A stretch of DNA of 28,284 bases from a virus (taxonomy: Duplodnaviria; Heunggongvirae; Uroviricota; Caudoviricetes): IMG/VR virus record IMGVR_UViG_2713896773_000001; one strand, 5' to 3'. This document shows, piece after piece, positions 1-28,044 of this stretch (its first letter is position 1; each line of letters starts with the position of its first letter). The position numbers were made by a program, and so were the translations under genes. Below the pieces are notes generated by a model that was not told where the DNA came from, did not search any database, and saw only the letters and a list, made by a program, of their open reading frames with translations.

Positions 1-65
1 TACTGCCTATTTTTGAAGGTGATGTGAATACCAAGCTTAGCGCCGCTGGCATCAAGGGGGAGTGA
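1..65 (+). CDS. 3' end of an upstream gene (5'-truncated by the window edge); TGA at 63-65 overlaps the next start
   Basis: Open frame from the window edge to TGA 63-65, with a TGATG overlap to the ATG at 65. Too short to assign a function. Confidence 0.3.
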   Translation, partial: LPIFEGDVNTKLSAAGIKGE

Positions 66-496
66 TGCTTCAACATCAAATGCAGCCAACATTTAACACC
101 TGCATGGCTACCTGCGTTGCAATGGTTGCCGGTCAACCTGTCGATGAGGTAGTGGAACGCTGGCATCAGAAATTCCAAGACAGAACAGACTGGCTCGACG
201 ACGCGCTGGATTATTACAAAATCCCGTATTTTTACGGAAGCCAGCGCAAGGCCGAATTGCTTTACGGGTTTATTTACTTCCTGACCGTTCCGTCACTGAG
301 CATCAAAGGCGGCCTGCATCAGATTCTGATGTCGTTAACGGCAGAACGCGGCATAGAAGTATTTGACCCGGCAATGGGTCGGCCAGGATCAAAATATTAC
401 GTTTGGGGTGAAGCGCAGAACGATGATCAATTCGGCGTTATCTCCTGGTGCGTCGATTTATCGGTTCCGGTAGTGCAACAGAAAGGTGAGGACTAA
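65..496 (+). CDS. free-standing C39-like (papain-fold) cysteine peptidase domain protein
   Basis: ORF-track ORF 62..496; ATG at 65 preceded by AAGGGGGA. N-terminal Q-x5-C-x-A-x-C-x-A-M-x-A-G block (QPTFNTCMATCVAMVAG) and a downstream H-x-I-L...FDPAMG block match the Cys and His/Asp motifs of bacteriocin-processing C39 peptidase domains (ColV exporter N-domain type). Motif match by eye, no search run. Confidence 0.6.
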   Translation: MLQHQMQPTFNTCMATCVAMVAGQPVDEVVERWHQKFQDRTDWLDDALDYYKIPYFYGSQRKAELLYGFIYFLTVPSLSIKGGLHQILMSLTAERGIEVFDPAMGRPGSKYYVWGEAQNDDQFGVISWCVDLSVPVVQQKGED

Positions 497-499
497 CCC

Positions 500-1339
500 A
501 TGAGCACTATTACCAAAGAACTGGCAAAGCTGTTCAGAAAAATTACGAATTCTGAAATTGATGCGGAGGGAAACGCTCATGTTGTTTTATCTCCTGCTGA
601 TAGCCTCCTGATTAATAATGCGCGTATCGCGCTGGCATCGCTCGAAGCGGAGCCTGTGGCGTGGGCGCACAGATTAATCAACAAGCGTAACGGAGTCGTT
701 CACCCTTGGGTTTACGGTAGCGCAGAGGCGTGTCCAAGCGAGGGGGATATCTTCAATATTGAGGTAATGCCGCTCTACACCGTCCCTCCAGCGCCGGTAT
801 CTGTGCCCGCTGCGATGGAAATGGATGATGACTTTGACAGCGCGTTTGAACACGGAAAAGCTGTCGTCTGGAACGCCTATCGCGCCGCCATGCTTCAGGC
901 CGAACCTGTAAGTAATAGTGATGAGTTACCNNNNNNNNNNNNNNNNNNNNNNNNNNNNNNNNNNNNNNNNNNNNNNNNNNAGTGGGCTGCACAATTGGCA
1001 GAAGCCAATCATCCGCAAACAGGTGACTGGTTGTACGACGACCAAATCGATCTTGCCAGGGCGATTCGCAAAGGTCCGGATATGCCTACTGTTCAGGGTG
1101 GCAGCTCTCCGGTAACTCCGGATGGTTGGATAAGCTGTAGTGAGCGAATGCCGGAAAAGAATCAGAACGTGCTTATTTCGGTGAATTTCGATAGCTCTCT
1201 GGTTGAACCGCTAATATGCTCCGCACGCTATACCGGAAGCACATTTCGGCGCGGAGATGCAACGATTAAGCCGGGTAATGGTATTGAGCAAGCAACTCAC
1301 TGGATGCCTCTACCAGAACCGCCGCAGGAGGCAAAATGA
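500..1339 (+). CDS. phage protein with C-terminal DUF551-like domain; contains an N-run so the reading frame across the gap is unverified
   Basis: ATG at 500 with AAAGGTGAGGA upstream. C-terminal DGW...MPEKNQNVLI...HWMPLPEPP is typical of DUF551 phage proteins. The 50-nt N-run at 931-980 interrupts the gene. Confidence 0.55.
   Translation: MSTITKELAKLFRKITNSEIDAEGNAHVVLSPADSLLINNARIALASLEAEPVAWAHRLINKRNGVVHPWVYGSAEACPSEGDIFNIEVMPLYTVPPAPVSVPAAMEMDDDFDSAFEHGKAVVWNAYRAAMLQAEPVSNSDELXXXXXXXXXXXXXXXXXXWAAQLAEANHPQTGDWLYDDQIDLARAIRKGPDMPTVQGGSSPVTPDGWISCSERMPEKNQNVLISVNFDSSLVEPLICSARYTGSTFRRGDATIKPGNGIEQATHWMPLPEPPQEAK
931..980. other. run of 50 N (gap or masked sequence) inside a CDS
   Basis: Directly visible in the sequence. 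Confidence 1.
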
Positions 1340-4452: not shown

Positions 4453-4776
4453 ATGAAAATGCCATACAAACAAGATTTCATCGCTGCGCTACTTGCCGCC
4501 AAGGAGCAGGGTATTGGTGCAATGCTGGCTTTTATCATGGCGTATCTGCGTGGTCGCTATAACGGCGGCGCGGTAACAAAAACGCTAATTGATGCGCTGA
4601 TGTGCGCGATGATTGCCTGGTTCGTTCGTGACCTTCTGGACTTTATCGGCCTGAGCAGCAACCTCGCCTACATAGCCAGCGTCTTTATTGGATACATCGG
4701 CACCGATTCGATCGGCAATCTGATTAAAAAACTTGCAGCAAAAAAGGCGGGAGTTGACGATGCAAACCAGTCCTGA
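4453..4776 (+). CDS. S: class I holin, lambda S type, with MKM dual-start motif
   Basis: Near full-length similarity to lambda S (107 codons, for example [24 protein letters not shown] blocks); GGAGGTGAGG upstream; ATG-AAA-ATG dual start. Confidence 0.9.
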
Positions 4777-5209
4777 CGGAATTGCTCTGATAAAAAAATT
4801 TGAAGGTTGTCGGCTGACTGCTTACCCCGACCCCGGAACGGGAGATGCGCCGTGGACCATCGGCTATGGCTGGACCCATCCGGTTGACGGAAAGCCAGTA
4901 AAGCGCGGTATGACTATCGACCAGCAAACCGCTGACAGGCTTCTGAAAACAGGGCTTGTTGGTTATGAGAATGACGTGCTGAAAGTTGTCAGGGTGAAGC
5001 TGACACAAGGCCAGTTCGATGCCCTGGTGTCGTTCACGTATAACCTCGGTGCGCGGTCATTGTCGACATCGACTCTCCTGCGAAAACTCAACGCCGGAGA
5101 TTACGCTGGTGCAGCCGATGAGTTCCTGCGCTGGAATAAAGCTGGTGGGAAGGTGCTGAATGGGCTGACACGTCGGCGGGAGGCAGAGCGAGCTCTGTTC
5201 CTGTCATGA
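4760..5209 (+). CDS. R: endolysin, T4/P22-type lysozyme (GH24)
   Basis: FEGCRL...DPGTG...WTIGYG catalytic region and ...[11 protein letters not shown]-terminus typical of P22/P21-type lysozymes. No N-terminal hydrophobic (SAR) segment. Confidence 0.9.
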
Positions 5210-5658
5210 TTAGCGCACTGGTTAAGCGTTACTGGCTGCAGTTGCTGGTGCTGGCGTTAATCGGCGCACTGGCTTTCTTCGTGAACCACTACCGCGACAA
5301 CGCCATCACTTACAGAGACCAGCGCGATAAGGCCACTGAGAAACTCCTCCTGGCGACCGCCACCATTAAAGACATGCAGACCCGCCAGCGTGATGTCGCT
5401 GCACTGGATGCCAAATACACCGGAGAACTGGCTGATGCGAAAGAAACCATTGAGCGTCTGCATAGCGATGTCATTGCTGGCCGTAAGCGGCTGCAAGTCG
5501 CCGCCACCTGTGCAAAGTCAACGACCGGAGCCAGCAGNNNNNNNNNNNNNNNNNNNNNNNNNNNNNNNNNNNNNNNNNNNNNNNNNNNACTACCTGCAGG
5601 AATACATCAGGACGCAATGCCTGAAATAATTTTTTTGCAAATCACAAAGTCAATTTAA
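5206..5658 (+). CDS. Rz: i-spanin Rz; 3' part passes through an N-run
   Basis: ATGA overlap with the endolysin; N-terminal transmembrane segment then coiled-coil-like region; about 150 aa. The 51-nt N-run at 5538-5588 is inside the gene. Confidence 0.7.
5435..5629 (+). CDS. Rz1: o-spanin Rz1 lipoprotein embedded in the +1 frame of Rz; 3' part passes through an N-run
   Basis: [20 protein letters not shown] lipoprotein signal with lipobox VSGC, followed by a proline-rich mature region ([13 protein letters not shown]). Confidence 0.6.
5538..5588. other. run of 51 N (gap or masked sequence) inside Rz/Rz1
   Basis: Directly visible in the sequence. Confidence 1.
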
Positions 5659-5827: not shown

Positions 5828-6346
5828 ATGAATAATCCGTCAGTTATTCCGGCCTTCGACTTCCGCGAAATGGTCACGACCCTCGACAACAAGATAATCA
5901 CCACATCACTCAAGGTGGCGGATTACTTTGGCAAGCGACACAAAGACGTTTTGCGTGCCATACGTAACCTGAAATGCTCCGATGACTTCACCCAGCGCAA
6001 TTTTGCGCCCATTGATTTCATTGATAAAAATGGCGATGTTCAGCCTATGTATAACATCACCCGCGACGGATGCATGATGCTAGTGATGGGATTCACTGGC
6101 AAAACAGCTGCCGCAGTGAAGGAGTGTTACATCAATGCCTTCAACTGGATGGCCGAGCAGCTAAACCGGCGCATGGCGATGGGTGAAGAATTGCAGCATC
6201 GCTACGCCATCAAAGAAACGCGCTCAAAGCTGAAAGGCACGATCGGAAGCCGTTTGATGAACGAGCGGAAGAAAGAGAAGCGCGTCCTGGAGCTCGAACA
6301 TGAGCACATCATGCAGGTAACGCAGCCGGAATTACTTATTGGCTGA
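5828..6346 (+). CDS. rha: Rha-family phage regulatory protein
   Basis: TTSLKVADYFGKRHKDVLRAIRNL...NITRDGCMMLVMGFTG matches the conserved Rha N-terminal domain. ATG at 5828 chosen over the GTG at 5792. Confidence 0.7.
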   Translation: MNNPSVIPAFDFREMVTTLDNKIITTSLKVADYFGKRHKDVLRAIRNLKCSDDFTQRNFAPIDFIDKNGDVQPMYNITRDGCMMLVMGFTGKTAAAVKECYINAFNWMAEQLNRRMAMGEELQHRYAIKETRSKLKGTIGSRLMNERKKEKRVLELEHEHIMQVTQPELLIG

Positions 6347-6406
6347 TCGCGGCATTACAGAAGCCCTTCATTGAGGGGCTTCGATAATGGAGCACTGGAA
6401 TTATTC

Positions 6407-7027
6407 ATGAACAGACCACACCCACCAGCGCATTTTACGATGCCACCTGACCCGAAGCCGTACATCAGCATTATGCCCGCTAATGACGTTGGCGAGTGGC
6501 TGAATCAGCACATCCTGAGCGATGAGGGTGACCTCTACAACCATGACCACCAGCATTTGCTTGAAGCGGATCTGTGCTTTCTCTGGGCGTCTAACGCTTT
6601 CGAGAAGAAAGGGCGTTCCGTGCTGGGGCAGGCGGAAGAAGTGGCAATGCGGGCTGGAGGCTGGCAGAAAGCGCGGATGGAGCAGCAGATGTATGAATGG
6701 TTCGGCAGGGTGCCGCAGTTCATCATCACGCTGGCCGCTGATTACTGCTCGCAATGTTCCGATCTGGAATTCTGTGCGCTGATAGAGCACGAGCTTTATC
6801 ACATCTGCCAGGCGACAGATGAATTTGGCGCGCCGAAGTTCACGCAGGAAGGGCAGCCAAAGCTGAAGCTGCGCGGCCATGACGTGGAAGAGTTTGTGGG
6901 CGTGGTTCGCCGTTACGGTGCAAGCCGGGACGTGCAGGAAATGATTGATGCGGCGAATCAGCCAGCGGAGGTTGCTCATCTCGATATTGCCAGAGCGTGC
7001 GGGACGTGCATGCTGCGACTGGCTTAA
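6407..7027 (+). CDS. putative zinc metallopeptidase-like protein (HExxH motif)
   Basis: IEHELYHI contains an HExxH zinc-binding signature; ATG at 6407 chosen over the TTG at 6371. Family not confirmed. Confidence 0.5.
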   Translation: MNRPHPPAHFTMPPDPKPYISIMPANDVGEWLNQHILSDEGDLYNHDHQHLLEADLCFLWASNAFEKKGRSVLGQAEEVAMRAGGWQKARMEQQMYEWFGRVPQFIITLAADYCSQCSDLEFCALIEHELYHICQATDEFGAPKFTQEGQPKLKLRGHDVEEFVGVVRRYGASRDVQEMIDAANQPAEVAHLDIARACGTCMLRLA

Positions 7028-16425: not shown

Positions 16426-17916
16426 ATGCCTAACGGCTTATCTGTTCAGCGCGTCGTAAACGTGCAGGTCACGCTCGCCGTTCGCGCGGCGCTCGGGCGT
16501 AATTTTGGCGCGCTGCTGGTGCTTGGCACCTCAACCGTCATTACGGCACCAGAAGTCATGCGCCTTTATCAGGACATTGAAAGCGTCGCCACCGACTTTG
16601 GCACGAGTGCCGAAGAATACAAAGCAGCAAACCTGTATTTCCAGCAATCGCCGCAGCCGCGTGATCTGTATATCGGCAAACTGGACCGCACCTCGACACC
16701 TGCCACCGCTGGCAAGCTTATCGGGGCAGTGCTTTCAAGTTCAGAGCAGACGCTGGCTAACTTTACCGCTGTGACAGCTGGCGCTCTGAAACTATCAATC
16801 AACGGCACTGTATCAACGATCACCGGTATTAACCTGTCTGCCGCTTCCAACCTGGCTGGCGTGGCAACTGCCATCACCGCCAAACTGACCGGCGCTACGG
16901 TCTCCTGGGTGCCTGGCTCCAGCCAGTTTGTCATTACGTCTGGTACGACCGGCGCAAAGTCAGCGATCGGTATTCCAACGGCGGCCGGAACGGGTACTGA
17001 CCTGGCTCCACTACTGGGCATTGATTCAGCACACAACCCCACGGTGGTAAACGGCCAGGCGGCGTCCTCTTCAGTTCTCCCGTCGGTCACTACCGCCCTG
17101 AACTACTCCGCCGACTGGTATGGCCTGGTAATTGCCGACACGGCGATGACAGATCAGGACCATATCGATGTTTCCGCGCTGATTGGCTCTGCAAGTGACT
17201 CCCGCGTGTATGGTGTAACCACTTCCGCATCGGCGGTTCTGGATGCAACCAGTACCACGGATATTGCCTACAAGCTGAAAGCGGCGGGTTACGGTCGTAC
17301 ATTCTGTCAGTACAGCAATGTTCCTTATGCAGCTGCTTCAGCGTTCGGACGTGCGTTCACCGTGAATTTCCTGGGGAATAACACCACTATCACGCTGAAG
17401 TTTAAGCAGGAGCCGGGTATTACCGCCGAGACAATCACTGCGCAGCAGGCCAACACGCTGAAGGCCAAGAACTGTAACGTGTTTGTGCGCTACGCCAACG
17501 ATACCGCCATCATTCAGGAAGGCGTGATGTCCAATGGCGACTTCTTCGACGAGCGCCATGGTCTCGACTGGTTGCAGAACTACGTTCAGACCAACCTCTA
17601 TAACCTGCTTTACACCAGCACCACCAAAATTCCGCAGACTGATGCCGGTGTGACCCGTCTGCTTTCCAACGTTGAACAGTCCATGGATCAGTCCGTCAAG
17701 AATGGTCTGGTAGCGGCTGGCGTGTGGAATGGTGGCCCTATCGGGCAACTGAATTCCGGCGATACGCTGACTAAAGGTTATTACGTGTATGCGCAACCTC
17801 TGTCCGAACAGGCGCAGGCCGACCGAGAAGCTCGCAAAGCACCGTTAATCCAGGTGGCCTGTAAGCTGGCTGGCGCAGTTCATTATGCCGATGTGCAGAT
17901 CAACGTGGTTCGCTAA
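16426..17916 (+). CDS. contractile tail sheath protein (DUF3383-like)
   Basis: 496 aa, GGAG upstream, followed by a tube-sized gene, chaperone and tape measure; family assignment by position and memory. Confidence 0.7.
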
Positions 17917-17926
17917 GGAGCGATAA

Positions 17927-18367
17927 ATGGCAACTTATTCTTTTCTCGATGTAACCGCGTCGCTCACCGGGCCGACCGGAGTTATCGATCTTGGTCAGGG
18001 TTCTGCGAACTCTGAGGAAGGTATCACCCAGACCATGGGCGGCAACAAAAACACCATGACCATCGGTGCCGATGGCGAGGTGATGCACAGCCTGCACGCC
18101 GATAAGTCAGGCACCATTACGGTGACGCTGCTGAAAACCTCCCCGGTGAACAAGAAGCTGTCTCTGGCGTATAACGCGCAAAGCCAGTCCTCTGCCACCT
18201 GGGGAAATAACGTGATCGTCATTCGCAACACGGCATCGGGTGATATTTCTACTGCGCGTTCGTGTGCATTCCAGAAACAGCCTGATTTCAATAACGCTAA
18301 AGAGGGCGGAACCGTCGCCTGGGTATTCGACTGCGGCAAGATTGACCAGCTTCTCGGGGAGTTTTAA
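17927..18367 (+). CDS. tail tube protein (DUF3277-like)
   Basis: 146 aa, AAGGAG upstream, located between the sheath and chaperone genes. Confidence 0.65.
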   Translation: MATYSFLDVTASLTGPTGVIDLGQGSANSEEGITQTMGGNKNTMTIGADGEVMHSLHADKSGTITVTLLKTSPVNKKLSLAYNAQSQSSATWGNNVIVIRNTASGDISTARSCAFQKQPDFNNAKEGGTVAWVFDCGKIDQLLGEF

Positions 18368-18370
18368 CGC

Positions 18371-18796
18371 ATGGAATTCGAAATTAAAGGCGTGAAATAT
18401 CGCACCGCAAAGCTCAGCGTTTTCGAACAGCTGAAGGTGTCCCGCAAGCTGTTGCCGGTTCTGGCCGGGATGGTTTCGGACTTCCGGAGCGTTCAGGAGA
18501 AGATCAGCAGCAAAGACACCGAAGGCGCGATGGCTACCATCCTGCCAAAGATTGCCAATGCTGTGTCCGATCTGAGTGATGGCGACGTGGACGCTATCCT
18601 GTTCCCCTGTCTTTCCGTTGTTTCACGCGAGCACATGAAAGGCTGGGTGCCGGTCTGCCAGCATGGCGAAATGGCGTTTGACGATATCGACCTGCTTACC
18701 ATGCTGCAACTGGTGGCGCGGGTGGTCGCCGACTCGCTGGGAAATTTTTTGCAAGGACTCCCTACCAGCGAGACGCCCACCCCGCCAGCGGAATAA
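18371..18796 (+). CDS. tail assembly chaperone (G-like product)
   Basis: Small acidic protein directly upstream of the tape measure gene; contains a slippery site near its 3' end. Confidence 0.6.
   Translation: MEFEIKGVKYRTAKLSVFEQLKVSRKLLPVLAGMVSDFRSVQEKISSKDTEGAMATILPKIANAVSDLSDGDVDAILFPCLSVVSREHMKGWVPVCQHGEMAFDDIDLLTMLQLVARVVADSLGNFLQGLPTSETPTPPAE
18742..18751 (+). promoter_or_regulatory. candidate -1 programmed frameshift slippery site (A AAT TTT and T TTT TTG heptamers in the chaperone frame)
   Basis: AAATTTTTTG lies in the 0 frame as gga-AAT-TTT-TTG; the -1 frame is open from here to 18984. Confidence 0.5.
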
Positions 18797-18984
18797 CCTT
18801 CAACAGCCTGCCGGGCGGTGAAGATTTTATTCTTCGTCCGGCGCTTGCCTTCCATATTGACCAGAAAGACCTTAACAGCGGTGCGGTAGACCTTTGCCGC
18901 ATCGCGCTTCTCAATGACTACCTCGACATGCGCGAGGATAACGACGCCCGGGTAGATAAATGGAGAGCGGCCAATGAGCGGTAA
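18745..18984 (+). CDS. -1 frame extension of the tail assembly chaperone (GT-like fusion product)
   Basis: About 79 codons open in the -1 frame, with no start codon of its own, ending just inside the tape measure gene. Confidence 0.5.
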   Translation, partial: FFARTPYQRDAHPASGITFNSLPGGEDFILRPALAFHIDQKDLNSGAVDLCRIALLNDYLDMREDNDARVDKWRAANER

Positions 18985-21241
18985 CGCAGATACGATTAAA
19001 GATTTCCTTGTTTCGCTGGGATTCGATATCGATCAGGCTGGCGCTAATAAGTTTGAAGCCGTGCTGAAAGGCGTTACCGCGAACGTTCTGAAGGTCGGCG
19101 CGGTGGTGGAAGGCGCAGCGCTGAGCATTGTCGGATTTACCACCCAGATCGCGAATGGTCTGGATAAAATTTACTGGGCATCCCAGCGGACGGGGGCCAG
19201 CGTCCAGGGCATCAAAGCGCTGGGCTATGCCGCATCGCAAACGGGTGCCAGCGCCGAGTCGGCCATGTCCTCCCTCGAAGGGCTGGCCGGTTTCATGCGT
19301 AGCAATCCGGGGGCGGAAGGCTTCCTGAACCGTCTGGGTGTCCAGACCCGTGATGCCAGCGGAAAGATGCGTGATACTGCGGCCATCTTTACTGGCGTTG
19401 GGCAAAAGCTCAACAACATGCCGTATTACCGCGCGAAGCAATACGCGCAGATGCTCGGCATCGATGAAAACACGCTGATGGCGATGCGGCGCGGCATGAA
19501 TGGCTTTACCGCCGATTACCAGTCTATGCTGCAAAAGACGGGGTTCAACGCTGATAAGGCAGCCGTTCAGTCCAACAAATTCATGACGTCCATGCGCGGG
19601 CTTACGTCGCTGTTCGGCATTATGCGGGACAAGATCGGCTCAAACCTCGCTGGTGGTCTTGCTGGTTCGCTGGACAGCCTGCGGCGGCGCATCCTCGACA
19701 ACTTCCCGAAGATTGAAGAGACGCTGACCAGAGTTATTAAAGGCGTGATCTGGCTTGCGAACGCCTTCACGCGAATGGCGTGGCGGCTCATACAGGGCGC
19801 TGGCTTTGTCATTGACTGGTGGAAGCGTCTTGACGATGGCAGTAAAAATCTGCTGAAAATATTCGGTGCTCTACTTGTCGCATGGCGTCTGCTTAATTCT
19901 GCGTTCCTGAAATCCCCGATTGGAATTATCACCACGCTGATTCTGGCGATCGGATTACTCTATGACGATTATCAGACGTGGAAAGAAGGCGGTAAAAGCC
20001 TGATTGACTGGAGCAAGTGGGAGCCTGCAATAGAAAAGGCGAAAAAGGCAATTCTCTGGCTGCGCGATAAGCTTCTGGGGCTGAAAGATTCTGTTGGTGG
20101 ATGGCAGAACTCGCTGGAAATTTTGGCTACCTTCATTGCTGGGGTTTGGGTAACAAAAGTGCTAGGAGCGTTCGCAAAAATATCCGGCCTTCCGATACCC
20201 CCCTGGCTTAAATTATGGGGATTGTATGCCGGTTATGTGGTTTCAGATCGTGAAAACATAAAAGCCAGTGCGCAATCGTCGTGGAATTACGCAAAAAGGA
20301 ACGTTGGCGACGCTCTTGCAGCGATCGGCATCAAAACCGATCTTGGGCGCAAAGACGTTAGCGAGGTACGGGAGTGGCCTGCATGGATGGATTGGCTGCA
20401 TGGTGGCCCAGGTAAGATTATTCGTCAAGCGCAAAGCAATGGCGTCGTTTATGGCGATAATGTTCAGCCTGACATTCCTGGGGTGGAACAGCATGTTCGT
20501 AGTAATGAAATTGCCCCGCATGAAAGAGATGAAATAAAAAACCGACAGCAGGCTGCTAATGGTTATCTTGAAAAGATCTCAGACGGGATTGCCAAAATCG
20601 GTAATTTACTTTTCTCACCGGCAGGTGCTGCTGAAATCTCTCCAAATATACCGAGCGATCCCACCAAGTTGGCGCAATCAGTTAAACGCCCACAAGCCAC
20701 AGCGCAGGGCAAGGTTTTGCTCGACTGGATGGGGCCATTGTTCAATAAGCTGGAGTCTCTTTATCAGCTGCCTGCTGGCTTGTTGAAAAGCGTGGCGATC
20801 ACCGAGTCGGGTGGTAACCAGTTCGCTGTGTCCGGCGCAGGCGCGAAAGGACTGTTTCAGTTTATGGATGGCACGGCGCGCGACATGGGCCTGCGTGGGA
20901 ATGATGTATTCGACCCGGAAAAGTCAGCTCAGGCAGCCGCTAAGTACCTCAGCCAGCTGTTGCGGCAGAACGGCGGAGACCTTAGCAAAGCACTGGCATC
21001 ATATAACTGGGGGATCGGGAATGTTAAGCGTTATGGAATGGGGCTAATGCCGCAGGAAACGCGCAACTACATTCCGAAAGTAATGAGCAATATGCCCACC
21101 AGCGCCCCGGTGATTCAGCAGGAAACGAATATTAACATCCACGGCGTTTTCGATCCGCGCGAGGCTGCCCGTTTGACTGTTGACCGTCAAAAGGGCGTGA
21201 ATTCACAGTTAACCCAGCAACTCCCCGCAGGACCGAGATAA
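18974..21241 (+). CDS. tail tape measure protein with C-terminal lytic transglycosylase (SLT) domain
   Basis: 755 aa with a hydrophobic central region; C-terminal AITESGGNQFAVSGAGAKGLFQFMDGTA...AAKYLSQL...YNWG matches the SLT catalytic region. Confidence 0.85.
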   Translation: MSGNADTIKDFLVSLGFDIDQAGANKFEAVLKGVTANVLKVGAVVEGAALSIVGFTTQIANGLDKIYWASQRTGASVQGIKALGYAASQTGASAESAMSSLEGLAGFMRSNPGAEGFLNRLGVQTRDASGKMRDTAAIFTGVGQKLNNMPYYRAKQYAQMLGIDENTLMAMRRGMNGFTADYQSMLQKTGFNADKAAVQSNKFMTSMRGLTSLFGIMRDKIGSNLAGGLAGSLDSLRRRILDNFPKIEETLTRVIKGVIWLANAFTRMAWRLIQGAGFVIDWWKRLDDGSKNLLKIFGALLVAWRLLNSAFLKSPIGIITTLILAIGLLYDDYQTWKEGGKSLIDWSKWEPAIEKAKKAILWLRDKLLGLKDSVGGWQNSLEILATFIAGVWVTKVLGAFAKISGLPIPPWLKLWGLYAGYVVSDRENIKASAQSSWNYAKRNVGDALAAIGIKTDLGRKDVSEVREWPAWMDWLHGGPGKIIRQAQSNGVVYGDNVQPDIPGVEQHVRSNEIAPHERDEIKNRQQAANGYLEKISDGIAKIGNLLFSPAGAAEISPNIPSDPTKLAQSVKRPQATAQGKVLLDWMGPLFNKLESLYQLPAGLLKSVAITESGGNQFAVSGAGAKGLFQFMDGTARDMGLRGNDVFDPEKSAQAAAKYLSQLLRQNGGDLSKALASYNWGIGNVKRYGMGLMPQETRNYIPKVMSNMPTSAPVIQQETNINIHGVFDPREAARLTVDRQKGVNSQLTQQLPAGPR

Positions 21242-21867
21242 TGGATATTTTATCAGCGATTTTTCGCCAGCAATCCCGGCGAATTGGCATATTAATTCCC
21301 AGCGTGGTCGTCTCCGAAAAGCATTCTGATGCGCTCGAAATTACTGAGCATCCGGTGGAGAAGCCAACAACGAATAGCGCGTCGGGTTTCATCGCCGATC
21401 ATGCATATAAACGTCCCAGCGAAGTCACAATGGAATGCGGCTTCGCTGGTGGCGGTTCGTTGCTGGACTTCATTGATACATCTTCAATCGGTCTTAGCGC
21501 TGGGCTTAGCCCAAAGGAGACATACCAAAAGCTGCTGGATATGCAGCTTGAGCGCGTACCGTTCGATGTGGTTACCGGGAAGAGGGTGTACACCAATATG
21601 CTGGTGCGTGCCATTGAGGTGACGACCGATAAAACCAGCGAGAACGTGCTGAACTGCACGCTTACCCTGCGTGAAGTGATCATGTCGCAGACATTTAAAA
21701 AGCAGGTCGCAGATAAGTCGGATATGCAGGACGGGGTTAGTACATCTGCGGTGCAGAATTCCGGGACTAAATCCACCACCCCAGTAAATGAATCGGTAAT
21801 TAAGTCAACAGGGTGGTTTGATGGACTAAAAGGAACCAGTCTTGGTAACTCTATAGGTATCCAATGA
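21241..21867 (+). CDS. hypothetical tail / baseplate protein
   Basis: TAATG-coupled ORF following the tape measure gene. Confidence 0.45.
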   Translation: MDILSAIFRQQSRRIGILIPSVVVSEKHSDALEITEHPVEKPTTNSASGFIADHAYKRPSEVTMECGFAGGGSLLDFIDTSSIGLSAGLSPKETYQKLLDMQLERVPFDVVTGKRVYTNMLVRAIEVTTDKTSENVLNCTLTLREVIMSQTFKKQVADKSDMQDGVSTSAVQNSGTKSTTPVNESVIKSTGWFDGLKGTSLGNSIGIQ

Positions 21868-22169
21868 ATGTAACTGAAATCCCTTTATCGCCGGATAACC
21901 AGCTATTTCGCATTCAGTTAGCAGAGACAACATACACGCTGAGAGTCATTTGGCGTGATTCTGCTGGCTGGATTCTGGATGTACAAGATAGCAGTGGCGA
22001 ACCGCTTCTTTCTGGCGTGCCGCTGGTAACCGGTGTAAATCTTCTTGAGCAATATCCTCAACTAGGTATTAACGGGGCGCTGCTCGTTGGCTGCGATGTA
22101 GGCGCACCGGACGAGCCCACCAAAACCAACCTCGGCATATACAGCCACCTCATTTTCGTGCAGGAGTAG
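21864..22169 (+). CDS. hypothetical small baseplate-associated protein
   Basis: ATGA-coupled ORF. Confidence 0.45.
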   Translation: MNVTEIPLSPDNQLFRIQLAETTYTLRVIWRDSAGWILDVQDSSGEPLLSGVPLVTGVNLLEQYPQLGINGALLVGCDVGAPDEPTKTNLGIYSHLIFVQE

Positions 22170-22171
22170 AA

Positions 22172-23236
22172 ATGTCTCTTAACTGGATGCGCCATTTTGA
22201 GCTGCAACTGTTGGACCAGAACGGGCAGGGCGTTTCCCTGTCTGATTTTAAGGTCACGTTCCAGATCGAGTGGGCAGATACACGCTGGCCGCGAGTGGCG
22301 AACGTGAAAATTTACAACCTTTCGACCGATACCACGAACAAGATACTGGGGCAGGAGTTTGCAAAAATTCGCATCATTGCCGGGTATGACGGTATTGCGC
22401 CGGATGTTGATGCGAGCCAGGTTGGTGTCGCCCGGGAGATTTCACCAGACCAGGTAGGGCAGGTGAACGGTCAGAACTACGGCCTGATATTTGACGGTGA
22501 TATTCGCTTCACCGTCACCGGGAAGGACAACATCACCGATTCCTGGGTGCTGATTCAGGCCATCAGTAACCACGAAGCGTTCCTCTACGCGACTACCATC
22601 ACCACGCTTGCCGCTGGCTATACCGTTGCGGATCTGCACCGGGCGACGATGCAGGATTTCAACGCGTTCGGCGTGACACAGGGCATTACCGGCGATTTTC
22701 CTGATACCGTGTTTCCTCGTGGCCGCGCGATTTACTCATCCAGCCGCAACGTGATGGATAATATTGCTGCGCAGTGTAAAGCAACATGGCAACTGGTGGA
22801 TGGTCAGGTCCAGATGGTGCCTGAAGATAAATATATTCACGAAGCCATTGTGTTGAATGCTGATACTGGCCTGATCGGTATGCCGCAACAGACGATGGGC
22901 GGCGGCGTAAACGTGCGGTGCCTGATAAACCCGAACATCCGCATTAATGGTCTTATCCAGCTCGATCAGGCTTCGGTGTACCGCGCCGCGCTCGGCAATA
23001 GCGAAATCGCACAGTCGCCCGGGCGTATCACCGAAACAGAAGAGAACGGCAACCGTGTGCTGACCGGCACGACGTCACAGGCTGCCAGCATTGCGACGGA
23101 TGGCGTTTATATCGTCAAAGCTATCGACTATACTGGCGACACCAGAGGTCAGGCGTGGTACATGGATTTGATGTGTTTTGCGCGTGGCAGCCGTGATTTA
23201 GTTAATACTAGTGCTATGCAAAAAACAAACTACTGA
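22172..23236 (+). CDS. putative baseplate hub-type protein
   Basis: 354 aa, AGGAG upstream, positioned before the spike and wedge genes. The last codons are AT-rich, at the border of the cargo island. Confidence 0.5.
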   Translation: MSLNWMRHFELQLLDQNGQGVSLSDFKVTFQIEWADTRWPRVANVKIYNLSTDTTNKILGQEFAKIRIIAGYDGIAPDVDASQVGVAREISPDQVGQVNGQNYGLIFDGDIRFTVTGKDNITDSWVLIQAISNHEAFLYATTITTLAAGYTVADLHRATMQDFNAFGVTQGITGDFPDTVFPRGRAIYSSSRNVMDNIAAQCKATWQLVDGQVQMVPEDKYIHEAIVLNADTGLIGMPQQTMGGGVNVRCLINPNIRINGLIQLDQASVYRAALGNSEIAQSPGRITETEENGNRVLTGTTSQAASIATDGVYIVKAIDYTGDTRGQAWYMDLMCFARGSRDLVNTSAMQKTNY

Positions 23237-23246
23237 GGTACGGGAT

Positions 23247-23582
23247 GTGAAACTCGTAATTTTTACCATTGCAGCATTATTTTCTTTCCAGGCTATTGCT
23301 GATTCTCAGTGTGGTGATTTCAAAATCCATTGGGCTGATGATGGCTTTGCTCGCGTAAACGGAGCTAAACCAGAATCGCAAAAAGTGACATTTCTTAAAA
23401 ATGACGGTGATTATAACAACGTCAAAATTGAATGGCGTTTAGCTACAAATCAACCCGGACGATGGGTAGGCATGGAGTTTATTGGCCGTAATGGTAAAGC
23501 AATCCTGAATGCTCAGTGGCTGCAAGCCAGCATGAACGCGCCGCGACAGTACGCAACATACGACTGCGTGAAGGTGAAGTAG
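23247..23582 (+). CDS. small secreted protein (cleavable signal peptide, two Cys), moron-type cargo; GTG start
   Basis: GAGG upstream of GTG 23247; N-terminal KLVIFTIAALFSFQAIA then DSQCG...; AT-rich compared with the flanking tail genes. Confidence 0.5.
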   Translation: MKLVIFTIAALFSFQAIADSQCGDFKIHWADDGFARVNGAKPESQKVTFLKNDGDYNNVKIEWRLATNQPGRWVGMEFIGRNGKAILNAQWLQASMNAPRQYATYDCVKVK

Positions 23583-23590
23583 GTATAAAG

Positions 23591-23614
23591 AAAAAGCGCC
23601 GGGTTGACCGGCGC
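23591..23614 (-). terminator. stem-loop (GCGCCGG-GTTGA-CCGGCGC) with a T-run on the minus strand; terminator for the minus-strand cargo gene, possibly bidirectional
   Basis: Perfect 7-bp GC stem; AAAAA on the + side gives TTTTT after the hairpin for a minus-strand transcript. Confidence 0.5.
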
Positions 23615-23620
23615 GCCAAG

Positions 23621-23971
23621 TTATTCCTCTTTGAAGCTGATGTTCTTGCACTGCTCCATTACTTCAATCAGTTCTTTTGACGTCAGGTTTTCTACTTCGA
23701 TTTTACCTTTCTCTGTGGTCATTGTTATTTTTTTGGATGATCTGGTCTGTATCCATTTTCTTGCGATAGATGCAATGGCTATACAAGCTGGTGACGACGT
23801 GGCTACGATGATAGTTATGTCGACGAGCGTGCCAACCGCATTAATTGAGTCAGCAGTTCTGATTCGTCTGCGTATTTTATAGTCGCTTTCAGGTATGTTA
23901 TCCTGGATTATGGAGAGCAATTCTTTGCCTATTGCTGGAGTAAATTTTATGGTTGTTTCTGATTTTGGCAT
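23621..23971 (-). CDS. hypothetical small protein with a central hydrophobic (membrane-type) segment, moron-type cargo
   Basis: 116-aa minus-strand ORF in the AT-rich island, K/E/I-rich with AVGTLVDITIIVATSSPACIAIASIA segment; terminator immediately downstream on its own strand. Confidence 0.45.
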   Translation of the reverse strand: MPKSETTIKFTPAIGKELLSIIQDNIPESDYKIRRRIRTADSINAVGTLVDITIIVATSSPACIAIASIARKWIQTRSSKKITMTTEKGKIEVENLTSKELIEVMEQCKNISFKEE

Positions 23972-24110
23972 AAAGGTATCCGGCCCCTATCGTGAGAAGC
24001 TAAAAATTGCCTTGCGGCTTTTTCTTGGCAGCCTGTATCTCGCTACGAACCACGACGTTACCGTGGTTTTAAGCAAGACCTACATTCAGGGCTGCAAAGA
24101 AGATAAATAG
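23949..24110 (+). CDS. candidate small ORF (53 aa from ATG 23949) in the cargo island
   Basis: GGAG 8 nt upstream of ATG 23949; followed by a + strand terminator. Its 5' end overlaps the minus-strand gene start, so one of the two models may be wrong. Confidence 0.3.
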   Translation: MVVSDFGIKVSGPYREKLKIALRLFLGSLYLATNHDVTVVLSKTYIQGCKEDK

Positions 24111-24150
24111 CACGGACAAATCAGCCCTCAAACCCTGACATTTGATCAGT

Positions 24151-24175
24151 AACCCGCCGCCGAGCGGGTTTTTTT
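24151..24175 (+). terminator. rho-independent terminator (AACCCGC-CGCCGA-GCGGGTT followed by a T-run) directly upstream of the baseplate spike gene
   Basis: GC stem plus 7 T on the + strand. Confidence 0.6.
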
Positions 24176-24186
24176 ATGGAGTTTTT

Positions 24187-24927
24187 ATGCCAATTCCAAC
24201 TCAATCACAGATCGGCGGAGAGCAGCAGACCGCGCAGGCCATTGCCGATTCGGTGTCTGCCCAGATGCGCGTGGCGATGCCAGGCATCATTCAGTCGTTC
24301 GATCCTGCCGCTGTAACCTGCACAGTAGAAGTGGCGCTTCGCGGTATTGTTGGCGATGGTTCCACCGAATTAAAACCGCTGGTGGATGTGCCGGTCATCT
24401 TCCCGCGCGGCGGCGGTTGCACGCTGACCTTTCCGGTAAAAGAAGGCGACGAGTGCCTCCTGATTTTTGCTGACCGTTGCATCGATTTTTGGTGGCAGAG
24501 CGGCGGCGTTCAGGAGACCGTCGACCCGCGCCAGCATGACTTATCTGATGCGTTCGCCATCGTTGGCCCGCAGTCGCAAGCACAGAAAATCAGCGGTATC
24601 AGTACCAGCGCCGCGCAGCTGCGAACCGATGATGGCGCGGCGTTCGTAGAGGTCGCCGCAGGACATAACATCACCATTAAAACGCCGGGCCAGCTTACGG
24701 CTACGGCTGAAGGTGGAACGACAATCACATCCCCGACTATCACGCTGAACGGCAACGTAACGATTAACGGTAACCTGTCTCAGGGAATGGGAGAAAGTGG
24801 TGGTACTGCGACGATGCTTGGGCCGGTTACGGTAACGAATGATGTGACAGCTTCAGGTATAAGTGTCGCCACGCATAAACATGGCGGAGTTCAGACAGGC
24901 GGGGGAACTACTGGAGGGCCGCAATAA
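24187..24927 (+). CDS. putative baseplate spike protein (gpV-like)
   Basis: GGAG upstream; C-terminal Gly/Thr-rich repeat region (TITLNGNVTINGNLSQG...) typical of spikes; position before the wedge genes. Confidence 0.55.
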   Translation: MPIPTQSQIGGEQQTAQAIADSVSAQMRVAMPGIIQSFDPAAVTCTVEVALRGIVGDGSTELKPLVDVPVIFPRGGGCTLTFPVKEGDECLLIFADRCIDFWWQSGGVQETVDPRQHDLSDAFAIVGPQSQAQKISGISTSAAQLRTDDGAAFVEVAAGHNITIKTPGQLTATAEGGTTITSPTITLNGNVTINGNLSQGMGESGGTATMLGPVTVTNDVTASGISVATHKHGGVQTGGGTTGGPQ

Positions 24928-25280
24928 TGCGATACCGTCGCGAAGATGCTGACGGCGATTACACTTTCGGGCAGGGTGACGATACCTTCCTTATCGACAG
25001 CCCGGAGTGTGTCGCCCAGGCCGTAAAAACCCGTTTCGAGCTGTGGCGCGGTCAGTGGTTTCTCGATCTGACGGAAGGCACGCCGTATGTTCAGTCAGTG
25101 CTTGGGAAGCAGCGATCAGATGTCTACATCCTGGCTATACGCGAACGCATACAGGATACACCGGGCGTTCTGTCGATTCTTTCCTTCGATACCAATTATG
25201 ACGGCACCAGCCGTCGCGTCACCTTCACTTCCTCCATTGACACAATCTACGGCCAGACGACTGTAACAAGCGAGGCATAA
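24927..25280 (+). CDS. small baseplate wedge protein (gp25/W-like)
   Basis: 117 aa, TAATG-coupled, located between the spike and J-like genes. Confidence 0.45.
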   Translation: MRYRREDADGDYTFGQGDDTFLIDSPECVAQAVKTRFELWRGQWFLDLTEGTPYVQSVLGKQRSDVYILAIRERIQDTPGVLSILSFDTNYDGTSRRVTFTSSIDTIYGQTTVTSEA

Positions 25281-26480
25281 ATGGCTTTGAACCTCGACAC
25301 GCTGGGGCTATCGGCAACGGTAACCGCCCAGGGGATTAGTGCGCCTGATTACCAGACAATCCTTGATACACTGACCAGCTATTTCAGGCAGATTTACGGT
25401 AGTGATGCCTACCTCGAACCAGACAGCAAAGATGGGCAAATGGTCGCGCTGGTGGCTCTTGCGGTGCATGACGCTAACAATACCGCTATCGAGATCTACA
25501 ACTCTTTTTCACCGACGACAGCGCAGGCCGCAGCGCTTAGCAACAATGTGAAAATTAACGGGATCACGCGAAAAGTAGCGACAAACTCTACTGCTGACCT
25601 TCTGTTAACCGGTACGGCAGGCACGACTATCACGAATGGCTCCGCACGGGATAAAAACGGCATTATCTGGAATTTTCCCGCAAGTGTAGCGATCGGCGTT
25701 GATGGTACTGTGCTGGTGACGGCCACATGTGCGAATAGCGGTTCGGTTGCGGCGCTGGCCGGGACTATTACCACTATCAACACCCCGACCCGAGGTTGGG
25801 TGTCGGTAACCAATCCAGTTGCGGCTACTGTCGGTTCACCAGCCGAAACCGACGCAGAGCTGCGCATTCGGCAGGGGCAAAGCGTCGCGCTACCATCGAT
25901 CACACCGTTTGAAGGTGTCGACGGTGCTATCGCTAATGTTGCTGGCGTGACACGTCACAAACTATATGAGAACGACACTGGGGCAACCGACAGCAACGGG
26001 CTGCCGCCACACTCTATTTCCGCCATCGTCGATGGAGGGGATGTTACCGAGATAGCCCAAACAATCCGGGGGAGTAAAGGGCAGGGAACCGCAACTTACG
26101 GTAAAACTTCTGTCACGGTGCCGGATACTTACGGTAATCCACACGTCATCAGTTTTTCGCGCTCTACCGATGTGCCAATTTTCGTAGCCATTACCCTGAA
26201 AGTTTTTACCGGCTATACCTCTCAAATCGGCGAGCAGATTAAACAGGCTGTTGCCGATTATATAAATGGCCTAACAATTGGCGACGACGTTCTGCTGAGC
26301 CGTATTTATTCCCCGGCAAACCTCGGCGTTGTGAGCGGCGGGAATGCCCGCTATTACGATATTACCGACCTGCTGATCGGTAAGTCGTCTGGCAGCGTAT
26401 CGGCATCAAACATTGATATTGCCTATGATGCTTCAGCGTCCTGTAGCACCGCGAATATCAGTATCACGGTGACCTCATGA
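25281..26480 (+). CDS. baseplate J-like protein
   Basis: 399 aa; position and size consistent with baseplate wedge J-family proteins. Confidence 0.6.
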   Translation: MALNLDTLGLSATVTAQGISAPDYQTILDTLTSYFRQIYGSDAYLEPDSKDGQMVALVALAVHDANNTAIEIYNSFSPTTAQAAALSNNVKINGITRKVATNSTADLLLTGTAGTTITNGSARDKNGIIWNFPASVAIGVDGTVLVTATCANSGSVAALAGTITTINTPTRGWVSVTNPVAATVGSPAETDAELRIRQGQSVALPSITPFEGVDGAIANVAGVTRHKLYENDTGATDSNGLPPHSISAIVDGGDVTEIAQTIRGSKGQGTATYGKTSVTVPDTYGNPHVISFSRSTDVPIFVAITLKVFTGYTSQIGEQIKQAVADYINGLTIGDDVLLSRIYSPANLGVVSGGNARYYDITDLLIGKSSGSVSASNIDIAYDASASCSTANISITVTS

Positions 26481-27157
26481 GCAAATACACCGAACTGATC
26501 ACTAACTACCACGCTACCAAGCCACTCTTTTTTGACCATATAGATCTGAGCACCCGCCCGCTGATTGATGTGTCCAGCACTATGTCAGGGCTTATAACAG
26601 CCTTCGATATCGATACTGCTGTCGGTGTACAGCTCGACATCCTCGGTCTGTGGATCGGACGCAGTCGCATAGTCAGCCAGCCAATTAGCGGAGTTTATTT
26701 CAGCTGGGACACTGACTGGCTTGGGTATGACCAGGGCATCTGGCAAGGGCCATATGATCCTGATTCTGGCTATACGACGCTAAGCGATGAGACGTACCGC
26801 ATCATTCTGAAAGCGAAAATCGCTATCAACAACTGGGACGGTCGGAACGACTCTCTGCCTCCCATCCTTGACGCTGCTACCGCAGGCTCAGGCCTGAGGA
26901 TGCAGATCGTCGACAACCAGGACATGACGATTTCGGTCTGGGTTTTCCCTGAAACTGATATTTCTGATGTGTCTCTCGAACTGATCGCCGCTATCAAACA
27001 GGGCTATCTCACCGTTAAATCAGCTGGCGTATGGGCCGGTGATGTTGAAACGCCTTCGGTAGAAACACCGTCAGAAGGCTCTAAATTCTTTGGGTTTGAT
27101 ATGGATAACGAATACATCGGCGGGTTCGATGTTGGAGCATGGGGGACAATACTCTAA
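26477..27157 (+). CDS. baseplate / tail protein (gpI-like)
   Basis: ATGA-coupled ORF between the J-like and tail fiber genes. Confidence 0.45.
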   Translation: MSKYTELITNYHATKPLFFDHIDLSTRPLIDVSSTMSGLITAFDIDTAVGVQLDILGLWIGRSRIVSQPISGVYFSWDTDWLGYDQGIWQGPYDPDSGYTTLSDETYRIILKAKIAINNWDGRNDSLPPILDAATAGSGLRMQIVDNQDMTISVWVFPETDISDVSLELIAAIKQGYLTVKSAGVWAGDVETPSVETPSEGSKFFGFDMDNEYIGGFDVGAWGTIL

Positions 27158-28044
27158 TGGCAATAAACAACTTTAAACCTTTCGCGCTTGATCCGAACGC
27201 TAACGTCACCTCACAAGCTGACTGGGAAGCACTTCCGGCTCTGCTTTCAGGGTTTACGGCAGGTAAAGCATCCAGCGCACAGGTCAACAAAGCTATTCGG
27301 CAAGCCAGCTTTATCGCGGCAGCGTTGGCGCAGTACACCGCCAACAAAAGCGGGCTGGATGTGCTTGATGATGGAGACCTGAACGGGTTTATATCCAAAA
27401 TGGGGACCGCTTTCGGGAAAGATTTCCAGGCGCTTGATGCCACGCTGTCGGCATTAGCTGGGCTCGCAACAGGTGCAAATAAACTCCCATATTTCACTGG
27501 AAATGATACAGCAGCGCAGACTGATTTAACTTCTGTTGGCCGTGACATTATTGGGAAAAATACTATTGCTGACATTCTCACATACCTTGGTTTGGGAGAA
27601 GGCTCAGCGTTACCCGTTGGTGTACCTGTTCCGTGGCCTTCAGCCACTCCGCCAACAGGCTGGCTGAAATGCAATGGTGCGCCTTTTTCTGCCGAAGAGT
27701 ATCCGGAACTGGCAAAAGTTTATCCGACAAATGAATTGCCAGATTTACGTGGTGAGTTTATTCGTGGCTGGGATGATGGGCGAGGAGTTGATACGGGGCG
27801 CAGAATTCTGTCTGCTCAGGGGGATGCTATTAGAAATATTACAGGCTGGTTTGGTGCGCACGCCACAGTGGTGGCTAAACCTCCGTTTGTTAAATTTTCT
27901 GCGCCGGAAATAGCAGAAAATGTCGGGGTTGGAGGGGGGAGTACGCGAGACGCTGTCAAACTTGATTTATCGTTATCGGTCCCCACGGCAAGCGAAAACC
28001 GCCCACGCAGTATCGCATTTAACTATATCGTGAGGGCTGCATAA
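27157..28044 (+). CDS. tail fiber protein with phage tail-collar domain
   Basis: PTGWLKCNGAPFSAEEYPELAKVYP...LPDLRGEFIRGWDDGRG matches the tail-collar fiber motif; TAATG coupling. Confidence 0.75.
   Translation: MAINNFKPFALDPNANVTSQADWEALPALLSGFTAGKASSAQVNKAIRQASFIAAALAQYTANKSGLDVLDDGDLNGFISKMGTAFGKDFQALDATLSALAGLATGANKLPYFTGNDTAAQTDLTSVGRDIIGKNTIADILTYLGLGEGSALPVGVPVPWPSATPPTGWLKCNGAPFSAEEYPELAKVYPTNELPDLRGEFIRGWDDGRGVDTGRRILSAQGDAIRNITGWFGAHATVVAKPPFVKFSAPEIAENVGVGGGSTRDAVKLDLSLSVPTASENRPRSIAFNYIVRAA

Follow-up and report, generated by a model that had tools for sequence, protein, structure and literature searches.

The lambdoid-type prophage analysed here carries a gene whose 143-residue product is, as judged from its sequence family and a predicted structure, a divergent form of a known peptidase kind, the C39 domain, that stands alone and is specific to phages. 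The window, that is, the whole 28,284-nucleotide stretch under analysis (contig LDYI01000077.1, assembly GCA_001309485.1), is the right-hand part of this prophage. The gene and its immediate surroundings are as follows.

3 to 65, plus strand: 3' end of the upstream gene, truncated by the contig end and probably Ead/Ea22-like (translation ...LSAAGIKGE, then stop)
54 to 62, plus strand: AAGGGGGAG, a purine-rich, Shine-Dalgarno-like stretch 5' of the peptidase ATG, read off the sequence
65 to 496, plus strand: peptidase gene, stop codon included (143 aa, stand-alone, C39-like, PHROG 4049)
500 to 1339, plus strand: downstream gene of the same operon, with an EaA-like N-terminus, a DUF551 C-terminus and a 50-N gap inside

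The ATG at 65 is the start of the open reading frame 65-496 (+), with the GTG at 62 as an alternative start, and the TGA of the upstream frame (63-65) overlaps this ATG. In full-length copies elsewhere, the upstream position is held by a PF13935 (Ead_Ea22) gene whose C-terminus reads ...AAGIGKGE before the stop, and RefSeq annotates an 'ead/Ea22-like family protein' beside E. coli copies. The Ead/Ea22-like genes at window 1-65 and at 5378-5440 of a second lambdoid locus (L001) have otherwise unlike C-termini and both end in ...AAGI(G)KGE and the stop, probably because those codons also serve the coupled peptidase gene as its ribosome-binding site. The downstream gene begins 3 nt past the peptidase stop, at 500, and its N-terminus matches the start of P22 eaA. 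A scaffold gap (50 N at window 931-980) breaks this EaA-like/DUF551 frame, so that public annotation has two genes in its place, 500-930 and 981-1339. A sequence-only reading of this DNA had described a 143-residue stand-alone protein with no transporter attached, encoded upstream of a DUF551 protein. Both points are borne out, as the open reading frame is real and encodes a single domain, no ABC transporter is present in the window, and the DUF551 gene follows at 500..1339.

The same reading had assigned the gene to the early region, which is roughly right; more exactly, it lies where the replication genes meet the nin region. The peptidase gene is followed by EaA/DUF551, NinX, a 112-aa ORF, NinB, YbcO, RusA and a 227-aa ORF, then by a lysis cassette of holin, lysozyme and Rz (4453-5537) and, past it, by pRha, a metallopeptidase, DUF2280, a 542-aa ORF, portal, capsid and a contractile-tail module. 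The 542-aa ORF occupies the position of the large terminase and has no Pfam match, and the 227-aa ORF, which matches no family, may encode a Q-like late-gene activator, although this is a guess. A terminator-like hairpin with a 7 bp stem and a T-run (2087-2104, +) stands directly after ORF 1721-2059 and before NinB (2300-2752); it may represent a terminator of the nin region, with antitermination allowing transcription to pass. Window 5828-7027, past the lysis cassette and ahead of the terminase genes, holds a gene of the pRha family (5828-6346) and one labelled 'PhageMetallopep' (6407-7027). The structural module (16426-28044) resembles that of myoviruses: it includes a DUF3383 sheath-like protein, Baseplate_J and a tail collar, and it is joined here to a lambdoid early region.

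The motif blocks from which the C39-like reading started occur unaltered in the protein (Q7...C13-M-A-T-C17-V-A-M-V-A-G23, H85-Q-I-L and F100-D101-P-A-M-G105), and the codons of the key residues are these.

83 to 85, plus strand: Q7, the predicted oxyanion-hole Gln, six residues before the nucleophile; aligns with Gln21 of LahT150
101 to 103, plus strand: C13, the predicted nucleophilic Cys, at the N-terminus of helix 13-22; aligns with Cys27 of LahT150
113 to 115, plus strand: C17, a second conserved Cys one helical turn past C13; kept in 104/113 relatives
317 to 319, plus strand: H85, the predicted general base, in strand 84-92 after the conserved VPSLNxxGG block; aligns with His101 of LahT150
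365 to 370, plus strand: D101-P102, the predicted third triad residue in the DPxxG motif common to C39 domains; aligns with Asp117-Pro of LahT150 (DPAKG)

The protein matches PHROG 4049 ('unknown function') over nearly its whole length (E 5.9e-51, residues 1-140 on profile positions 2-144 of 145) and has close homologues in Enterobacteriaceae (E down to 1e-83). When 1.84 billion representative proteins were searched with a profile, 695 clusters (50% identity) were returned at E<=1e-3, largely of proteins 135-160 aa in length, and most of the 150 family representatives listed from these clusters are stand-alone proteins of 125-170 aa. Among longer members, the fusion partners are uninformative except for one C-terminal zinc ribbon. 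In Logan assemblies, two proteins (P0176, 392 aa; P0178, 400 aa) have a peptidase 98% identical to the query fused to DUF551 or Ead/Ea22, and these fusions are probably frameshift or assembly artefacts.

Conservation was assessed in an alignment of 113 diverse relatives sharing 22-57% identity with the query. Q7, C13, H85, D101 and P102 are invariant (113/113), and C17, A19, M20, V75, S77, N79, G105 and Y112 are each kept in at least 90% of the members. The spacing is equally constrained: six residues from Gln to Cys in 112/113 members, 70-76 from Cys to His in 105/113 and 14-17 from His to Asp in 99/113. Conservation of this order across such divergent relatives means that the motif blocks are not due to chance. 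LahT (6mpz alignment) has Ser at the position of C17, whose role may be redox-related or structural; for the C39 toxin domain StbD-CT, processing is redox-regulated.

Relationship to C39 domains emerged at the level of the family. When the 143-aa protein alone served as query, no peptidase match was obtained in Pfam, NCBIfam or PDB sequences; only RhaT was matched, below threshold and spuriously, and PF03412 (Peptidase_C39; curated Pfam threshold, 22 bits) gave no match even at E<=10. A profile of close homologues found nothing among PDB sequences. By contrast, 28 of the 113 family members have weak Peptidase_C39 matches at E<0.1, two of which (P0136, 27.9 bits; P0232, 25.2 bits) exceed the 22-bit threshold, the other members falling below it or having no match, and one of the 113 touches PF13529 (Peptidase_C39_2) at E 0.07. 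The search against peptidase-family HMMs that had been suggested as a check came back empty for the query and gave these mostly weak matches for its family.

The two top matches of the family profile among PDB sequences were a YopT-like domain and LahT150, neither of them significant (E 0.44 and 0.6). In the LahT150 match, the Gln, Cys, His and Asp-Pro align in register, and an hhalign comparison of the family profile with the LahT150 fragment, a single-sequence template, again aligned the catalytic residues (E 7e-5, 62% probability). In both the HMMER and the hhalign alignments, the Gln, Cys, His and Asp of the family stand in the C39 register, on Q21, C27, H101 and D117 of LahT150, together with the DPxxG motif. 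The catalytic spacing is 6/72/16 in the query, 6/74/16 in LahT150 and 75/17 in StbD-CT. The likeness to the YopT-like PfhB2 domain (SxNxEGGxH...DPNxG) is local and, at E 0.44, was set aside as not significant.

Structure prediction pointed the same way. An AlphaFold model built from the 113 diverse sequences reached pLDDT 95.4 and pTM 0.89, and a prediction from a 17-sequence alignment was poor (pLDDT 56). The confident model has the papain-like alpha/beta fold of C39 domains, with the Cys at the N-terminus of a helix and the His and Asp on consecutive strands, a triad placement described for LahT (PMC6363468). A search of BFVD with the fold returned uncharacterised phage relatives alone. The structure prediction that had been named as a further check agrees with a papain-like arrangement, and the C39-like reading is upheld at the level of fold and catalytic residues. 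The fold itself had been noted in passing: PHROG 4049 has a fold assignment in a table of PMC9409062, and one relative bears the UniRef name 'Peptidase C39 domain'. We found no functional study of the family in the literature.

Could the family nevertheless be a catalytically inert binding module, of the kind represented by the C39-like domain (CLD) of HlyB? Domains of that type have lost the catalytic Cys, the change that defines them, and no such loss is seen among the 113 relatives, in all of which Q, C, H and D are retained. Because C13 is invariant, the phage family is not of the HlyB type, and the persistence of Gln, Cys, His, Asp and Pro at 22-57% identity argues for a working enzyme over a degenerate binding domain. 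We therefore regard an inert module as exceedingly improbable, and consider it very likely that the product is an active papain-type hydrolase.

Several features suggest where such an enzyme would work. No membrane segment or export signal was found in the 143-aa protein by hydropathy, as Kyte-Doolittle values stay at or below 1.18 in every 19-residue window, and the pI is 4.8. With the nucleophile at residue 13, there is no leader peptide, and together with the lack of a hydrophobic segment this means that the protein should be cytoplasmic. The family shares its fold and catalytic register with the C39 domains of PCAT/AMS exporters (ComA PEP, LahT150, PCAT1; PF03412). Those domains, however, form the N-terminus of an ABC exporter or are encoded with one, whereas the phage protein is a stand-alone 143-aa polypeptide, and no ABC transporter was found in the window or in related loci. 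PCAT/AMS domains cleave after a Gly-Gly (or Gly-Ala, Gly-Ser) leader motif; a specificity of this type is proposed for the phage family by analogy. Stand-alone 'C39-like' proteins (PDB 3erv of Bacillus anthracis; Pfam Peptidase_C39_2) differ in being bacterial and larger, at about 200 aa with extra decorations, whereas the phage-borne proteins are smaller. PeiR, PeiW and PeiP, the MEROPS C71 enzymes of methanogen viruses, function in lysis: they have cell-wall-binding repeats and cleave an isopeptide bond in archaeal pseudomurein; in contrast, the peptidase described here has no export signal and is encoded outside the lysis cassette (4453-5537).

We then compared the genomic settings of the family. 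The gene always lies within runs of early or accessory genes. Among lambdoid prophages, it occupies the replication-nin junction in the window and in two further loci (L004, L005), and the early-left accessory region, after abc2, in L001. A second temperate group (L062-L091; about 25 IMG/VR contigs of 28-72 kb, with ~37-41% identity) has the order DnaC-like helicase-loader gene, 147-aa ORF without family, peptidase, NinB, which is the same replication-nin junction. In distant prophages of Pseudomonas abyssi and Alishewanella, the gene is part of the early-left operon after CI/Cro, and in P. abyssi it is flanked by a Lar-like anti-restriction gene and a DNA methylase. Virulent carriers (Vequintavirinae, Queuovirinae, phiVC8-like Vibrio cholerae phages and Pseudomonas phages) have it within series of small early genes, and some E. 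coli copies adjoin a PD-(D/E)XK nuclease or a TraR/DksA gene.

A dedicated partner was sought by clustering all ORFs within 3 kb of the gene at 96 loci representing 19 lineage groups. No neighbouring family occurred in more than four of the 19 groups across these 96 loci, and the clusters that recurred in three or four groups were antisense ORFs or neighbours common to related phages. Likewise, no conserved partner was seen in the annotated regions of nine phages, in the two distant prophages or in PHROG scans of neighbours, and no leader-bearing candidate substrate adjoins the peptidase gene. These results bear on whether the enzyme might instead mature a phage protein, such as the neighbouring Ead/Ea22-like or DUF551 protein or a leader-bearing peptide. 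Such a role would agree with the translational coupling to the upstream Ead/Ea22-like gene in most lambdoid copies examined, with the DUF551 gene that follows in most of five related places examined, and with the fused gene calls in assemblies (P0178, P0176), where Ea22 or DUF551 is joined to the peptidase. However, the neighbours are wholly different outside the lambdoid group and variable inside it, none recurs as a family in the set of 19 lineage groups, no double-glycine leader is seen where the DUF551 protein starts, and the fused calls are probably frameshift artefacts. A maturation protease is thus an improbable reading of the gene.

The family is phage-restricted, patchy and accessory. 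It was found in 193 phage records, from lambdoid prophages, Ackermannviridae, Vequintavirinae, Queuovirinae, Vibrio cholerae podophages and Pseudomonas phages, and in only two plasmid records. Nine of 5426 complete E. coli genomes carry the gene, as do ~39 of ~283 genomes with the Ackermannviridae-type topoisomerase II (about 14%). Two roughly 60-kb phages, Ec1-ASingh (PQ561393.1) and vB_Kpn2-P2 (PP848851.1), each have two matching places, which suggests paralogous copies, and the genome of E. coli ABWA45 (NZ_CP022154.1) has seven places that match the 432-nt query.

Carriers include both temperate and virulent phages, which is relevant to the idea that the gene encodes a prophage-borne toxin or exclusion factor guarding the lysogen through abortive infection, or is the remnant of an interbacterial toxin. 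C39 toxins do exist, and prophage accessory regions often hold defence genes. The known examples, Cpe1 (T6SS) and StbD-CT (CdiA-like), are nevertheless attached to delivery or entry domains (PAAR, VgrG, Rhs, CdiA) and accompanied by an adjacent immunity gene. The phage family has neither, since no delivery domain was found in the 143-aa protein and no immunity-like neighbour recurred in the 19 lineage groups, and it shows no specific sequence affinity to either toxin. PADLOC gave no defence-system match, the peptidase gene lies in operons that are repressed in the lysogen, and the family is common in the strictly virulent Kuttervirus, Vequintavirinae and Queuovirinae. A toxin or exclusion factor is accordingly a highly improbable explanation.

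We instead infer that the protein is an active enzyme, that it acts in trans on a host protein with a specificity of the Gly-Gly type, and that the phage benefits, along the following lines. The product would be a soluble, cytoplasmic Cys-His-Asp endopeptidase of the C39-like branch of the papain superfamily, acting alone, with no transporter, delivery domain or dedicated partner. It would be transcribed with the early genes, in the window as part of a delayed-early operon at the replication-nin junction. After induction or infection, it would cut a single, specific protein encoded by the host, which could belong to a defence system or be a housekeeping factor. By analogy with C39 enzymes, the cut would probably follow a motif of small residues of the Gly-Gly type, and this cleavage would serve counter-defence or host takeover. 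Taken as a whole, we give this mechanism an even chance of being correct. Its position as an accessory early gene is compatible with anti-defence, though no proof of it.

Free C39 domains can cleave cytoplasmic proteins, as Cpe1 (PMC12136450) and StbD-CT (bioRxiv 10.64898/2026.05.07.723447) both kill bacteria by cutting GyrB and ParE at LHAGGKF. The phage enzyme might therefore shut off the host in the manner of these toxins, cutting the GyrB/ParE ATPase subunits at LHAGGKF while a phage topoisomerase II replaces the host enzymes. In Salmonella phage Maynard (L006, 2986-3435) and Shigella phage Ag3 (L013, 2489-2935), the gene lies between the genes for the large and medium subunits of topoisomerase II, and this placement within the topoisomerase II operon of Kuttervirus and Agtrevirus is suggestive. 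Moreover, the large subunit of the phage topoisomerase II reads LYAGSNF at the LHAGGKF site. To our knowledge, however, a non-GG motif at this site is general in topoisomerase II of the T4 and eukaryotic types, and lambdoid replication needs host gyrase; we counted both points against GyrB/ParE cleavage. Just the ~39 of ~283 Ackermannviridae-type genomes noted above have the peptidase gene together with that topoisomerase II. The subunit genes abut in PhaxI and Det7, and LPST94 has an annotated HNH homing endonuclease next to its large-subunit gene. This scarcity, together with the abutting or HNH-bearing arrangements elsewhere, points to a permissive insertion spot and not to a functional link. 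No topoisomerase gene was found beside the peptidase gene in the lambdoid, Vequintavirinae, Queuovirinae, phiVC8-like and Pseudomonas neighbourhoods inspected. Finally, StbD-CT is no nearer to the family than PCAT domains are and is absent from the family-profile matches among PDB sequences. Cleavage of GyrB and ParE is, on this balance, an improbable rival to the mechanism that we favour.

Equally improbable is a deconjugase type of counter-defence, in which the enzyme, by analogy, would act as an isopeptidase after a C-terminal Gly and either remove or clip the ubiquitin-like modifiers of bacterial immunity, such as type II CBASS Cap2 conjugates or those of Bil-type systems. The likeness to Josephin- and UFM1-type deconjugases and to bacterial Josephin-like ubiquitin 'clippases' is one of analogy, and deubiquitinase-like matches score below C39 domains. 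No link to a defence system was found with PADLOC, and our literature searches turned up no support for the deconjugase reading.

Most phage proteins known to act in counter-defence or host takeover are binders, nucleases or enzymes that modify nucleotides, and we know of very few dedicated proteases from phages that cleave one particular host protein. There is some chance, albeit a small one, that the family will prove to be the first widespread phage site-specific protease directed against a host protein. Its boldest form would be a Gly-Gly cut in GyrB/ParE, with Ackermannviridae supplying a Gly-Gly-less topoisomerase II from the same operon; the alternative would be a phage 'deubiquitinase' acting on CBASS or Bil conjugates. 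The gene product is a good experimental candidate and not a surprise. The enzyme is compact and easily expressed, with C13A as the obvious knockout; C39 domains that cut GyrB and ParE supply a concrete first candidate substrate, and a cleavage-site-specific phage protease could serve as a tool. The family reaches across 193 sequenced phages that infect Enterobacterales, Vibrio and Pseudomonas, public sequence data contain 695 clusters of it, and its patchy distribution is as expected of arms-race genes.
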